This document shows, piece by piece, positions 5,729 to 12,589 of a stretch of DNA of 35,839 nt. This stretch comes from Candidatus Hodarchaeota archaeon. Lineage in GTDB: Archaea; Asgardarchaeota; Heimdallarchaeia; Hodarchaeales; Hodarchaeaceae. The DNA is taken from assembly GCA_016839815.1 (NCBI GenBank), contig JAEOTM010000071.1, forward strand, positions 1 to 35,839, in the 5' to 3' direction. The stretch's first letter is position 1. Every line of letters begins with the position of its first letter. The notes under the pieces were generated by a model. That model was not told the DNA's origin. It did no database searches and worked only from the letters and a program-made list of their open reading frames with translations. Made by a program: the position numbers and the translations under genes.

Positions 5729-6706
5729 TCACTCGTTTTCTAGAGCAGAGCCACATGTTTCACAAAACCGGTCTTCTTTAAGAACCATTTCACCACATTG
5801 TGAACAGTAGCGAAGAAAATCGTTAATTTGAACATCTGGAACGGTCATAAATTGTTCTAACGAAGCTTGAGCTCGTTCACCTGCTCTTCTTCTAACAGTG
5901 GCCATGTTGATAGTTTCTAGCTTCTTGAGGGGTTGCTTCAATAAGATAGCTAATTGGCGGGCATTAGCTGGTGCAGATCCCGCAGGATGATTATTAAAAT
6001 AAGTAAATATTTCTTTAGTAGCCTGGTCTTTGAGAGCTTCTATCTTCTCTTTCCAGACCAGTAATTCTTTCCGAGAATATAGGTAACGATACCATAATTT
6101 CAATCCATGACCATGGAGACGAATATATGAGAAATCAGCTGTAACAGGAGTAATAGGTGGTAAAAGAGGTTCATCCACAATGCAATAGGCAGCATTAAAT
6201 TTTGCTAGTAAGCTGATGGTTCGATTTACATGGGTTTTTCGAACCCAAGTTTTCTCTCGAAATTCTACAGCCAATTTTAATTCTGAAGGCCAATGTCTAA
6301 GGAATACAGCGAGTGCCTGTCGATTTTCATCTGAGAACTTAGGAGGAAGCTGAAGCAAGGCTGGACCCATTTTTTCTCGTAATCCAGTGGACATCGTATC
6401 TAGGAACCGTTCGAGATCTGAGTGAAAATCAATAAGGCGTTTTTCGTGGGTGATAAGTTTGGGAATTTTGAATGCAAATAAAAAATTGTCTGGAACCTGT
6501 TTTTCCCATCTTCGTACTACATTTAAGCGGGGAAAATGATAGAAACTTGTATTAATCTCTACAGTAGAGAAAACTTCCGAATACCAGGCAAGGCGCTGTT
6601 GTTCAGTGAGGATGGAGGGATAGAAAGCGATTTGGGTTTTTTCATTACGGGCATGCCAATCAGAATATCCAAAACCTGAGGTTCCAATTAATACTTTCGC
6701 AGTCAC
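5729..6706 (-). CDS. DUF72 (YecE-like TIM-barrel, putative nuclease) with C-terminal PIP box and zinc ribbon
   Basis: IGTSGF.Y.DW, VEINTSFY, FKIPKLITH, LLQLPP, AVEFR, YIRLHG and YFNN are DUF72 signatures. The tail has QASLEQFM followed by CSQC-x10-CETC. Confidence 0.9.
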   Translation of the reverse strand: MTAKVLIGTSGFGYSDWHARNEKTQIAFYPSILTEQQRLAWYSEVFSTVEINTSFYHFPRLNVVRRWEKQVPDNFLFAFKIPKLITHEKRLIDFHSDLERFLDTMSTGLREKMGPALLQLPPKFSDENRQALAVFLRHWPSELKLAVEFREKTWVRKTHVNRTISLLAKFNAAYCIVDEPLLPPITPVTADFSYIRLHGHGLKLWYRYLYSRKELLVWKEKIEALKDQATKEIFTYFNNHPAGSAPANARQLAILLKQPLKKLETINMATVRRRAGERAQASLEQFMTVPDVQINDFLRYCSQCGEMVLKEDRFCETCGSALENE

Positions 6707-8167: not shown

Positions 8168-8989
8168 ATGAGTACAAGTACTTCGAGACAAATGAGTACT
8201 GATGCTGATCCATGGTCCTCGGCCTGGGAATTACAGCGAAGACCGAGATATAAATCAGGTGTTCTCGCTCTCGATGCGTTGATACATGACGGTATGATGC
8301 CTGGTAGCTTGTTTCTAATACAAGGCGATGTCCCTCGGAAATTACTTCGGCAATTCGTGACTAAAATTGTTATAGGTCTGTTAACCGTGAATGATCCCTC
8401 GGAGCTAGCTTTTATTGATGGGGCTAACTTATTTCCTTATTATGAAATAGCTTCTGAAGCACGAAGAACTGGATATGATCCACTGGTAATTCTGGATCGC
8501 ATTCAGTTATCACGGGCTTTCAATTTTCATCAAATGACTGAGATCATCACCACTAGACTTCCCAAACTCCTAGAGGTAAAAAAACAGCTCAAAATTGTCT
8601 TTATACCCCAAATATCGTCATTATACCTGTCTACGGAAGCATTAGAATATTTAGAATATGCAAATCTGTCACCAGCAGAAGGGGCGCTATCTGAATTAAC
8701 ACAAGCGATTGGAACTCTGAAGAGTCTGGCTTTACAACATAACTTGATGGTCATTATGACAGCTGCTAGCGCAACGGGATCAAAGACCAAAGGTCTCGGA
8801 GGGACGTATCTCACTCATTCAGCATCTTCTGTCATTCGGATGGCCTCCTCAGCAGAAAGCTCGGCCAAAGAATACGATATTCATTTTTCCCTGCAAAAAG
8901 ATCCAGCCCGGCCAGTAATTCAGCTGACGCACTCACATAGGCAAAAAAAACCATCTACTAGTCAAACATTACTGAATCGTTATTGGTGA
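8168..8989 (+). CDS. Catalytically inactive RadA/RecA-fold protein (ImuA-like partner of PolB2)
   Basis: RadA-like blocks SGVLALDALIHDG, FIDGANLF, LDRIQLSRAFNFHQM and GGTYLTHSAS. Walker A is replaced (QGDVPRKLL) and the Walker B Asp is lost (IVFIPQI). N-terminal WSSA; C-terminal QTLLNRYW. Confidence 0.85.
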   Translation: MSTSTSRQMSTDADPWSSAWELQRRPRYKSGVLALDALIHDGMMPGSLFLIQGDVPRKLLRQFVTKIVIGLLTVNDPSELAFIDGANLFPYYEIASEARRTGYDPLVILDRIQLSRAFNFHQMTEIITTRLPKLLEVKKQLKIVFIPQISSLYLSTEALEYLEYANLSPAEGALSELTQAIGTLKSLALQHNLMVIMTAASATGSKTKGLGGTYLTHSASSVIRMASSAESSAKEYDIHFSLQKDPARPVIQLTHSHRQKKPSTSQTLLNRYW

Positions 8990-8993
8990 TAAT

Positions 8994-9278
8994 ATGGGAC
9001 GAACCTTACCTTCCTATCGAATGGTGTTGGAACATGAACGTGACCTCTGGATAAAGCATTTTGCGAAACGATTACGAGAACCTTATCGTACAAGCTTTGA
9101 CTATCTTTGGGAGAAGGCATTTCAGTTAGCGGATGCCTCCTCGGCCAATACACGACCAGTTGCTCTAGACAACATTCTCATGAGTATGGTAGTGGCTCAA
9201 CAGGCAGAAATTCAGCTTTTGCAAAAAGATCTCAAGGTTTTGCAGAAACAAGTGAATGACAATAGTGAGTTGCTCTGA
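8994..9278 (+). CDS. Small helical PolB2-associated protein (arCOG07300-like)
   Basis: MGRTLPSYR N-terminus typical of the small gene found directly upstream of archaeal polB2; C-terminal coiled coil; 4-5 nt gaps to both neighbours; SD GGTGA overlaps the upstream stop. Confidence 0.8.
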   Translation: MGRTLPSYRMVLEHERDLWIKHFAKRLREPYRTSFDYLWEKAFQLADASSANTRPVALDNILMSMVVAQQAEIQLLQKDLKVLQKQVNDNSELL

Positions 9279-9283
9279 TTATA

Positions 9284-11518
9284 ATGGTTACCCAACGTGC
9301 ATGGCTACATGATGTAGCAGCTGCAAATTGGGGCGTACACACCTATTGGATTACATCAAAAGGAGGAATTAAGGCTTATTATCCAATGACAGTTGAGTTT
9401 TTCCTGGCAAAAACCGATCAAGAAACCCAAAAGCGTGTGTTAAGCCATCCCGAAGTCGAGGCAGTCGAAGAAATCTCTAAGTATGTGTCAATCCACGATT
9501 GGCAACCAAGTCCTGTTCTTCGAGTACGAGTGAATCCCACCAAGATACGAACAACCTTTGAGGATTTACGTAAATATTGGGGCAAATACCTCTATAATGC
9601 TGATCTCAGTATTTATCAGCAGTTTAGTTTTCAAACAGGACTTTTCCCCTATGTCTACGCGAAAATTAATGTAAAAAATGGACGCTTACAAGAGAACTGG
9701 AAGCTTCTCGAGCATTATCTACAGGCTGACTATCGCGTTGTTCCTTTCCGTACCCTTTGGATGCAACCATTCTTTGAAGAGCAAAATTTCGCACGAGGGG
9801 CGATTCAGGAAATACATATGCGACATTCCCTGGCAGATGAAGGAGAGGGGCCAATAATATTTGTAGAAGATACAGAAGCAGAGACTATACGGGAAAGTAT
9901 GATGTATCTCAACAAGTTTGATCCAGATATCTTGTTTACATCTGGTGGGGACACCTTTTTTCCGATATTGGCCCAACGAGCAACAGATCTGGGAATAGGA
10001 TATTTACATCCAGGCAGAGGAAGACGTAGACTGTATAGCTATATCAGAAAAAACTCTCAACCCCGTGGCCATAGTTACCAGTCGTATGGAAGAGTGTATT
10101 TTTCCCAACACGGAGTCTATTTTGACGGTGGACGTCATCATTATGATGTTGGAAATTCGTTCATGTGGAAAGAAGGAAATATTGATGGAATCCATGAACT
10201 TGTCCGGTTAGGGTGCTCTGACCCGCAACGAATTGCTCGAGCTACAATTGGTACCGCATTAACCGCTGTGCAGATGCGGACAGCTTATCGACGAAATATT
10301 CTGATTCCAGCAAGAAAAGCTGACAGTGAAGACTTTCGACCTGGTTCAACGATGATGAGCGATGTAGGAGGACTGGTATTTTCCCCTCAGGTAGGTTTCC
10401 ACCAGAACCTCGTAGAACTCGATTTTTTGTCCATGTATCCCTCAATCATGACATATCGAAACGTTAGTCCTGATACAATCAATTGTGGGTGCTGTAAGCA
10501 TGACCAACGGCAATTTGTCCCTGGAACGGATCACTATATTTGTACCCAACGACCAGGTTTGATTAGTCTAGCTTTAAAAAATGTTCTTGATAGAAGAGCT
10601 TATTTTAAAAGTAAACGGAACATTAAATCTTATGATCGTCGTCAGAAAGTCCTTAAATGGCTACTTGTATGCTCATTTGGATATCAAGGTTACCGTAATT
10701 CCCGTTTCGGACGTATTGAAGCACATGAGGCTATTTCTGCCTATGGTAGAGAGGCTTTAACTCGTACCAATCAAGTTGCTACTGAATTTGGACTTGAGGT
10801 AGTAGCTGGGATTGTAGATTCGATTTGGTTAAAAAATCCCAATAATACGCCTATTGAACAGTCGATTATCGATAAAATCTGCCAAAAAATTCAAGAAGAG
10901 GTAAAACTTCCGATCGAACATGCTACCAATTATCATTGGATTGTATTTCTTCCTAGAAGGCACGAAAAATCGATAGGTGTACTCAATCGCTATTACGGAT
11001 TGAAAACTACTGGTTCTTACAAGATTCGAGGCATTGAAATTCGTCAATCTAGTAGTCCATTATTTGTCAAAAAACTTCAGCGCCAGCTCTTGAAGATCCT
11101 GTCCACAGCACGTACACCAGAACAGTTTGAAGAGTGCGCTCATAAAGCCAAGAGAGTGATGCGCAAGTACTTAGCTGATTTGAAGGCAGGAAACATTCCG
11201 TTGAGCGATCTTTTAGTAACTATTCGTCCCTCACGAGGTCCAGATGAATATGTGAGTAATACACGCCAAGCTATCGCAGCTCGTCAATTGAAGACGGCAG
11301 GAGTGAAAGTGGAAGCAGGAATCAAACTCAGCTATCTCATTCTTGATGCTTATGCCTCTGATCCGACCAAGCGAGTGAAAGTCACTCAGCTCTTGACGGG
11401 TAAAGAGCAGTATGACTACCAGGAATATCGCAAGCTGTGTATTCGTGCCTATGAGGGATTAATCCCTCCGGAAATGGAGCAAAAAAGATTGACAATAGAT
11501 GAGTATCTTCTGGCATAG
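9284..11518 (+). CDS. polB2: Family B DNA polymerase, PolB2 (Dpo2) group
   Basis: Motif A DFLSMYPSIM, motif B KWLLVCSFGY, motif C AGIVDS (the first Asp of YGDTDS is lost, diagnostic of PolB2), KIRGIEIR; exonuclease motifs degenerate; operon context with dead RadA and the small protein. Confidence 0.92.
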   Translation: MVTQRAWLHDVAAANWGVHTYWITSKGGIKAYYPMTVEFFLAKTDQETQKRVLSHPEVEAVEEISKYVSIHDWQPSPVLRVRVNPTKIRTTFEDLRKYWGKYLYNADLSIYQQFSFQTGLFPYVYAKINVKNGRLQENWKLLEHYLQADYRVVPFRTLWMQPFFEEQNFARGAIQEIHMRHSLADEGEGPIIFVEDTEAETIRESMMYLNKFDPDILFTSGGDTFFPILAQRATDLGIGYLHPGRGRRRLYSYIRKNSQPRGHSYQSYGRVYFSQHGVYFDGGRHHYDVGNSFMWKEGNIDGIHELVRLGCSDPQRIARATIGTALTAVQMRTAYRRNILIPARKADSEDFRPGSTMMSDVGGLVFSPQVGFHQNLVELDFLSMYPSIMTYRNVSPDTINCGCCKHDQRQFVPGTDHYICTQRPGLISLALKNVLDRRAYFKSKRNIKSYDRRQKVLKWLLVCSFGYQGYRNSRFGRIEAHEAISAYGREALTRTNQVATEFGLEVVAGIVDSIWLKNPNNTPIEQSIIDKICQKIQEEVKLPIEHATNYHWIVFLPRRHEKSIGVLNRYYGLKTTGSYKIRGIEIRQSSSPLFVKKLQRQLLKILSTARTPEQFEECAHKAKRVMRKYLADLKAGNIPLSDLLVTIRPSRGPDEYVSNTRQAIAARQLKTAGVKVEAGIKLSYLILDAYASDPTKRVKVTQLLTGKEQYDYQEYRKLCIRAYEGLIPPEMEQKRLTIDEYLLA

Positions 11519-11578: not shown

Positions 11579-12589
11579 ATGAAGCCGACTCTTTCTCAAT
11601 TCCAAGGATGTCTCGTTGGCCAATGTCTTGGAGATGCATTAGGATTTCCAGTTGAAGGACATGGCCCCGAAACCTGTGCAAAATATGTTCAGGAGAATAT
11701 TCAGCATACTCCTGATAAGATGTTAGGACGAGCGCACTTTCCTTTTGGCCAGTATACTGATGATTCACAATTAGCACGTGAGCTCATCCAAAGCTATATT
11801 ACCAGTAATGGCCAGTTTCATCCCGAGGAGTATGCAACACGAATAGCTGCTATTTTTGCAGATAATCGTATAGTTGGAAGGGGTTTAGCTACTCATCAAG
11901 CGGCTGAAAATCTCATACATGGTGTTTCGTGGAAGGAGTCAGGTATTCCTGCTCCAAATGCGGGGAATGGGAGCGCAATGCGCGCTGCCCCTATTGGGAT
12001 GTTTTTTTTTGATAATATAGACCTTCTTACCAGACATGCGGTTGATCAAGGTCGAATTACACATACTGATCCTCGTTGTCATGCGGGTGCAATGGCAATT
12101 GCTGGAGCTGTGGCTCTTGCATTCCGCGAAGAGGAAATAATTCCTTCTACATTCCTACCTACATTAGTTGATTATGTAAAACCAATTGATAGTACTTTTT
12201 CCCGCGGACTTGAAAAAATGGAAATATGGTTGGATTGGGATATCAAAGCAGCAGTAAAAGTAATCGGTCCATATGGTCGAAAAACAGGATACGAAGAGAG
12301 TTATACTTGGCGGAATATCTCACCTTACGTTATTAGTAGTGTTTTATGGAGTCTGTACGCGTTTTTAAAAACCCCCGAATCTTATACAGAAGCAATTATC
12401 ACCTCTATTATTGTGGGAGGTGATGTTGATACAACAGCCGCCATGACTGGGGCAATCAGTGGAGCATACCTAGGAATTGATATGATTCCTAAAGAAATGG
12501 CACATCAATTGACAGACCAAGGTACATGGGGGTTTGAAGACTTAATGGAGCTTGCTAAAAAGTGTTATGCGATAAAAATGGGGAATTGA
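11579..12589 (+). CDS. ADP-ribosylglycohydrolase (DraG/ARH family)
   Basis: GDALGFPVE, YTDDSQ, GNGSAMRAAPIG, THxDP and GGDVDTTAAMTGAISGA motifs. Confidence 0.93.
   Translation: MKPTLSQFQGCLVGQCLGDALGFPVEGHGPETCAKYVQENIQHTPDKMLGRAHFPFGQYTDDSQLARELIQSYITSNGQFHPEEYATRIAAIFADNRIVGRGLATHQAAENLIHGVSWKESGIPAPNAGNGSAMRAAPIGMFFFDNIDLLTRHAVDQGRITHTDPRCHAGAMAIAGAVALAFREEEIIPSTFLPTLVDYVKPIDSTFSRGLEKMEIWLDWDIKAAVKVIGPYGRKTGYEESYTWRNISPYVISSVLWSLYAFLKTPESYTEAIITSIIVGGDVDTTAAMTGAISGAYLGIDMIPKEMAHQLTDQGTWGFEDLMELAKKCYAIKMGN

Follow-up and report, generated by a model that had tools for sequence, protein, structure and literature searches.

A conserved FxxA-type motif at the N-terminus of the inactivated RadA encoded with PolB2 in Asgard archaea

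Results

Gene arrangement of the iRadA-PPB2-PolB2 locus

The window analysed here is the whole 35,839-nt stretch of contig JAEOTM010000071.1 (assembly GCA_016839815.1) from Candidatus Hodarchaeota archaeon, an Asgard archaeon of the Hodarchaeales. It carries three closely packed plus-strand genes (Table 1), separated by gaps of 4 nt between iRadA and PPB2 and 5 nt between PPB2 and PolB2. We identify the first of these, almost beyond doubt, as iRadA, the opening gene of the published iRadA-PPB2-PolB2 operon. The operon was recognised by Makarova, Krupovic & Koonin in 2014 as a combination of PolB2, arCOG07300 and an inactivated RadA (PMC4104785), and Timinskas, Timinskas & Venclovas in 2025 inspected 40 complexes and predicted a PolB2-iRadA-3xPPB2 heteropentamer (PMC11791011). 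A Heimdallarchaeota operon with the same gene order was already present in the latter data set, in which the MGRT arm of PPB2 is conserved. The closest relatives of the window iRadA come from Hodarchaeales/Heimdallarchaeia MAGs, and the order iRadA-PPB2-PolB2 is complete in 13-14 of 16 Asgard loci, that is, wherever the contig permits.

Table 1 Features of the PolB2 locus in the window
Feature	Position	Strand	Basis and remarks
DUF72 protein with C-terminal zinc ribbon	5729..6706	-	Pfam DUF72 (E 6.5e-65), Zn_Ribbon_1 (E 4.5e-6)
iRadA, ATPase-dead Rad51-fold subunit of the PolB2 mutasome	8168..8989	+	273 aa; Pfam, orthologue profile, fold, operon
WSSA, apparent retained RadA/Rad51 FxxA-type polymerisation (donor) motif	8213..8224	+	HMM alignments, orthologue conservation
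PIP box QTLLNRYW at the C-terminus of iRadA	8963..8986	+	Match to Qxx[LI]xx[FY][FYW], conservation
PPB2 (arCOG07300), small helical subunit with MGRT N-terminal arm	8994..9278	+	94 residues, starts MGRTLPSYR; homologues carry Pfam DUF8156 (PF26485)
PolB2 (Dpo2-type family B polymerase)	9284..11518	+	744 residues; NCBIfam and Pfam matches
PIP-like C-terminal motif of PolB2, RLTIDEYL	11486..11509	+	Conserved at the C-terminus of 13 Asgard PolB2

PolB2 is needed for damage-induced mutagenesis in Sulfolobus. The PolB2 of the window matches the NCBIfam models for type B DNA-directed DNA polymerase PRK05761.1-4 and -2 (E = 1e-105 to 1e-107, both under the curated cut-offs) and Pfam DNA_pol_B (E = 1.1e-27), and its exonuclease domain is vestigial (E = 8e-4). 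Motif C, read by eye, is GIVDS, in which the first Asp is replaced, as it is in S. islandicus (IID; PMC11791011). Two Asgard PolB2 orthologues (L010:4268-8095 and L019:7040-10897) are over-long, with 1275 and 1285 residues compared with the usual ~745, and their length suggests an inserted element such as an intein.

The DUF72 domain is a TIM-barrel and a structural relative of UV-damage endonuclease. In the window, the DUF72 gene is on the strand opposite to iRadA and 1.46 kb upstream of it; two further minus-strand ORFs lie between the two genes. DUF72 genes are enriched near polB2 (PMC11791011). Downstream, on the same strand as PolB2, an ADP-ribosylglycohydrolase gene (11579-12589, plus strand) begins 60 nt past the PolB2 stop codon.

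The iRadA frame contains two in-frame ATGs, at 8168 and 8192, and a clear Shine-Dalgarno sequence precedes neither. The orthologues begin at the second, which corresponds to a protein of 265 residues; judged by this comparison, 8192 is the probable true start. Residue numbers below refer to the 273-residue frame.

Fold and lost ATPase site of iRadA

We built an alignment and profile of 35 orthologues with 45-86% identity to the window iRadA (hereafter A1). While the Pfam Rad51 match of the single protein is partial (residues 76-220 only, E = 7.8e-6) and the NCBIfam matches to RadA, RadB and Dmc1 are all sub-threshold, the A1 profile searched with HMMER against all PDB sequences retrieved P. 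furiosus Rad51 (1pzn) with an E-value of 5.6e-11. The AlphaFold2 model computed on A1 has a mean pLDDT of 76 and a pTM of 0.76, with a confident Rad51-type core, and Foldseek aligned it to RAD51, Dmc1 and RadA chains (E = 1.7e-15, TM about 0.65). A sequence-only reading of this DNA had described the protein as a dead paralog of RadA that lacks the HhH domain at its N-terminus, and this description is confirmed. Walker A is absent from the window iRadA, where the P-loop position reads GDVPRKLLRQ, and the motif G-x4-GK[ST] occurs in none of the 148 distant representatives checked. The Asp of Walker B is also replaced (IVFIPQISS). The HhH domain is missing, leaving only 7-15 residues ahead of WSSA.

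The most conserved part of iRadA in A1 is its pocket region, where A81, F82, D84, G85, N87, F89, P90, I112, R116-N119, H121 and Q122 are invariant. The published model has iRadA as a fixed subunit, one per complex, with a beta-alpha loop of PolB2 in its acceptor pocket (PMC11791011). This loop was not located with confidence in the Asgard PolB2s that we compared, since these sequences are too alike. The PDB sequence search retrieved no solved structure of iRadA, PPB2 or PolB2; the PolB2 holoenzyme is known from AlphaFold models only, and a 2026 review describes its experimental verification as awaited.

Both ends of the iRadA model are of low confidence, with pLDDT values below 50 at residues 1-13 and 260-273. 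Residues 11-20 average 57, and a helix (H19-23) opens immediately after WSSA. Because of the low pLDDT of these tails, WSSA and the C-terminal PIP box look, in the model, like short linear motifs on flexible ends.

An FxxA-type motif precedes the iRadA core

The tetrapeptide WSSA occupies residues 16-19 of iRadA; a start at 8192 would make these residues 8-11. WSSA had initially been aligned by eye with the FxxA polymerisation motif of RadA and Rad51, and HMMER alignments to recombinases of known structure and to the RadAs of the host now place it there. A1 profile positions 15-18 ('Fisa') fall on F97-MRA100 of P. furiosus Rad51, and when hmmsearch --max is run against the two canonical RadAs of the host, the same columns land on their FVSA and FETA. 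For human RAD51, S. solfataricus RadA and yeast Rad51, the alignment opens one or two residues ahead of the FxxA motif.

The motif is strongly conserved among the orthologues. Position 16 is aromatic in all 34 sequences (W in 12, F in 22), position 18 is Ser in 32 of 34, and position 19 is Ala in 32 and Gly in 2 (n = 34). Averaged over the motif, the frequency of the top residue in A1 is 0.74, as opposed to 0.36 in the flanking N-terminal tail (the seven columns before the motif). At positions 1, 3 and 4, WSSA agrees with the consensus of the RadA donor motif. The spacing from the F/W to the LD motif is 23 residues in host RadA and 19 in the window iRadA clade, whose linker after the peg is thus 4 residues shorter than that of RadA. 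Judged by these alignments, WSSA is the ancestral RadA polymerisation peg, evidently kept when the HhH domain was lost. A retained FxxA on iRadA is mentioned neither in the main or supplementary text of Timinskas et al. 2025 (PMC11791011) nor in Makarova 2014 (PMC4104785), and the conserved motif is apparently undescribed.

Binding data for related peptides indicate what such a motif can do. Measured on humanised P. furiosus RadA, the affinity of WHTA exceeds that of FHTA three-fold (93 vs 280 uM). Position 3 of the FxxA consensus is usually Ser/Thr, and Gly at position 4 weakens binding six-fold yet occurs in natural RadAs (PMC4855620). The preference for Trp, the Ser/Thr at position 3 and the natural Gly at position 4 together support the chemical competence of the iRadA peg.

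The host genome encodes four Rad51-fold ATPases (L001-L004), all of them full-length and with both Walker A and an HhH domain. Contamination as the source of the four genes was rejected, as genomes of the same genus show 3-6 matches. The two canonical RadAs carry the pegs FVSA and FETA and, since they have an FxxA of their own, must possess the matching pocket. The pegs of the two other paralogs are degenerate: PTTA, which has no aromatic residue, and LKPG. The A1 profile scores these two paralogs at 29-32 bits and the canonical RadAs at 12 bits.

Distribution of the motif among iRadA relatives

An exhaustive phmmer search for iRadA relatives gave 207 clusters at 50% identity. Among the 81 representatives (50% identity) with an aligned N-terminus, 37 carry a hydrophobic-x-[STD]-[AG] motif 14-30 residues before the LD motif; in 300 shuffles of the N-termini, 7.7 +/- 2.5 carried it and the maximum was 17. 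The motif-to-LD spacing is 23 residues, the same as in host RadA, in 19 of the 38 motif hits among the 81 representatives, and 18-19 residues in 11 of the 38, which include the window clade. Fourteen relatives begin with the motif itself, in the forms MFxxA, MITA and MxFxSG, and the motif is still present in relatives at 20-30% identity. One family (f13, loci L028-L049), found in a scan of 150 Asgard genomes, consists of iRadA-like genes that start with M-x-F-x-S-G and have a conserved C-terminus TLDxW[FLIV]; most of them have neither PPB2 nor PolB2 within 1.5 kb. These are unlinked copies.

Every taxon-labelled relative that bears the motif is from Asgard archaea, and the cluster names of 20 distant representatives are all Asgard or blank. 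Homologue searches with PPB2 and with a diverse alignment (A2) retrieved Asgard relatives only, the related-locus search with A1 retrieved Asgard loci only, and the ESM Atlas gave only archaeal 'Rad51 domain' clusters. Since all taxon-labelled carriers are Asgard, the retention of the motif in iRadA, as read from these sequences, is stated for the Asgard phylum only. A tblastn search of PolB2 against plasmids found PolB2 operons in haloarchaea only. A Chroococcidiopsis plasmid polymerase was considered as a further PolB2 operon and rejected, as it sits in a dnaN/dnaX replication module. C-terminal endings of the 'LDLF' type were likewise rejected as a bacterial marker, one such protein being named archaeal.

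The iRadA of Haloferax volcanii pHV4 begins at the LD motif, and the peg is absent. Thus, mutasome function does not require the peg in all cases. In the same pHV4 operon, a TnpB gene interrupts the order between PPB2 and PolB2, and the iRadA ends in a PIP-like LLDAW.

A PIP box on iRadA and a PIP-like motif on PolB2

The last eight residues of iRadA had been read as a PIP box. They fit the consensus in the form Qxx[LI]xx[FY]W, and the reading stands with a qualification on the Gln. In A1, position 4 is Leu or Ile in 35 of 35 sequences and position 7 is Phe or Tyr in 34 of 34; position 8 is Trp in 29, and Gln is found in only 21 of 35. PCNA-binding motifs lie at the C-terminus of many archaeal iRadAs, with AlphaFold models for other iRadAs (PMC11791011). 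The host genome has one PCNA gene. With this strong precedent we infer that the C-terminal PIP box of the window iRadA probably binds PCNA.

The C-terminus of PolB2 follows the pattern xxT[LI][ED]x[FY][WLF] in 13 Asgard PolB2; in the window, the Gln of the PIP consensus is replaced by Arg. By motif comparison, PolB2 and iRadA of the Asgard mutasome thus each seem to have a clamp-binding motif, and this pairing is rare in the published set (PMC11791011).

Comparison of the window iRadA with the published iRadA proteins (arCOG04294/07763/08101) reveals no difference in kind. Both have a Rad51 fold without the N-terminal domain and have lost the ATPase motifs, and they share the order iRadA-PPB2-PolB2 (group 1a), the MGRT arm, the C-terminal PCNA-binding motif and a DUF72 gene nearby. 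The differences are the FxxA-type donor motif, which goes unmentioned in the published descriptions (PMC4104785, PMC11791011), and the conserved PIP-like motif at the end of the window PolB2. The initial proposal of a new two-headed adaptor therefore stands as to the two motifs and falls as to novelty: the protein is the known iRadA, and earlier work had already described its PIP box, its part in tethering PCNA and the parallel with the Pol V mutasome (PMC11791011). What is already known comprises iRadA, its operon and the PIP box on iRadA; what appears to be new is the retained donor motif, together with its RadA-like spacing in many Asgard relatives.

Discussion

Possible partners of the N-terminal peg

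We consider that the window iRadA is best explained as a dead mutasome subunit with a core that holds PolB2, a PIP tail on PCNA and a peg that docks in a RadA-type pocket, although we hold this explanation tentatively and place it a little short of an even chance. In such a complex, the surface of the iRadA core would accept the RadA-like beta-alpha loop of PolB2, as in the published models, and the PIP box would hold PCNA and so place the complex at the end of the primer. At the N-terminus, the [FW]x[ST]A peg would enter the pocket that accepts FxxA in a partner with the Rad51 fold. This partner would most probably be the RadA at the end of a RadA-ssDNA filament, and a head-to-tail chain of the form RadA(n) <- iRadA <- PolB2 would result. 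The pocket of XRCC3 receives the FxxA of RAD51 (PMC13186703), and the XRCC3 complex caps the 5' ends of filaments (PMC7618403); therefore, the free acceptor pocket would be at the 3' end of the filament. In a gap, this end would adjoin the primer terminus where PolB2 and PCNA act. The filament polarity, like the docking itself, is deduced rather than observed.

Docking of the peg on RadA is plausible from the sequence comparisons, though we would not call it probable, and several points count against it. The published heteropentamer was modelled with high confidence although RadA was absent; in these models, the RadA filament plays no part, the N-terminus of iRadA is given no role, and the pairwise models cover PolB2 with RadA and PolB2 with iRadA only (PMC11791011). 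The shorter linker after the peg in the window clade and the loss of the motif from haloarchaeal iRadA also count against RadA docking, as does the weak affinity of tetrapeptides for the pocket, about 0.1-0.3 mM. This affinity implies that further contacts are needed, which a protomer without an ATP site may not offer. Since all taxon-labelled carriers of the motif are Asgard, its conservation could also serve another, Asgard-specific partner, for example the two RadA paralogs with degenerate pegs.

The complete arrangement, in which the peg of Asgard iRadA sits on the 3' tip of a RadA-ssDNA filament while PolB2 occupies its own pocket and PCNA is bound by its PIP box, is possible but doubtful. 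Under this arrangement, iRadA would form a bridge by which the mutasome is delivered to, or licensed at, RadA-coated gaps. The result would be a structural counterpart of RecA*-activated Pol V in which a dedicated dead paralog is used. The remark in the sequence-only reading that such a system needs no LexA is without bearing on the evidence.

An alternative is that the peg is functional and its partner is not RadA. It may enter the pocket of another iRadA before PolB2 binds, as self-association or autoinhibition, or that of a host paralog with a degenerate peg. The exceptional conservation of the iRadA pocket region is consistent with the former, and the presence in the genome of two extra Rad51-fold ATPases with the pegs PTTA and LKPG, which the A1 profile scores above the canonical RadAs, with the latter. 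However, the iRadA pocket is occupied by PolB2 in the published model, with one iRadA per complex, and the paralogs have no link to the operon. We regard a partner of this kind as unlikely.

A peg that acts inside the mutasome, through contacts with PolB2 or the PPB2 trimer or by stabilising the iRadA fold, and that has nothing to do with recombination filaments, seems improbable to a similar degree. [quoted passage not shown] On the other hand, no such contact was reported among the 40 complexes inspected (PMC11791011), the residues around the motif have low pLDDT in the monomer model, and a match to the RadA donor consensus at three positions, combined with the RadA spacing in many relatives, is unexpected for an unrelated interface. 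That the peg is a mere relic of the RadA ancestor is very unlikely: while iRadA descends from RadA and haloarchaeal iRadA has lost the motif, the Ser and Ala are 94% and the aromatic residue 100% conserved down to 45% overall identity, the neighbouring tail columns vary freely, and the motif persists in relatives of 20-30% identity.

If the peg truly docks on RadA, this contact would explain how the mutasome finds RadA-coated gaps, and the Pol V/RecA* principle would extend to the closest archaeal relatives of eukaryotes. In eukaryotes, RAD51 paralogs have by now been shown to cap the ends of filaments via this same contact. Without such docking, the gene would be a normal member of its operon. 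In both cases, W16 and A19 offer a cheap and precise mutational handle on the predicted complex.

Comparison with other recombinase-linked systems

[quoted passage not shown] Both also combine a clamp-binding motif with a small subunit that has an N-terminal arm. While the RecA used by Pol V is active and comes from a filament's 3' tip, iRadA is a dedicated dead paralog encoded in the operon, and any contact of the PolB2 mutasome with a RadA filament would, unlike in Pol V, be made via the peg of iRadA itself.

In the XRCC3 complex, a Rad51-fold paralog is similarly joined to a filament end via an FxxA/pocket contact. There, XRCC3 serves as the acceptor at the 5' end, which it caps, whereas iRadA would be the donor and hence be located at the 3' end. 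Unlike XRCC3, iRadA lacks an ATP site, and it bears a PIP box together with a polymerase.

The BRC repeats of BRCA2 also present a [FW]x[TS]A motif on a flexible segment, which fits the Phe and Ala pockets of RAD51 and RadA and in which Trp is tolerated or even better (PMC4855620). In contrast to these unrelated peptides, which have a second LFDE module, the iRadA motif appears to be the homologous ancestral polymerisation motif itself.
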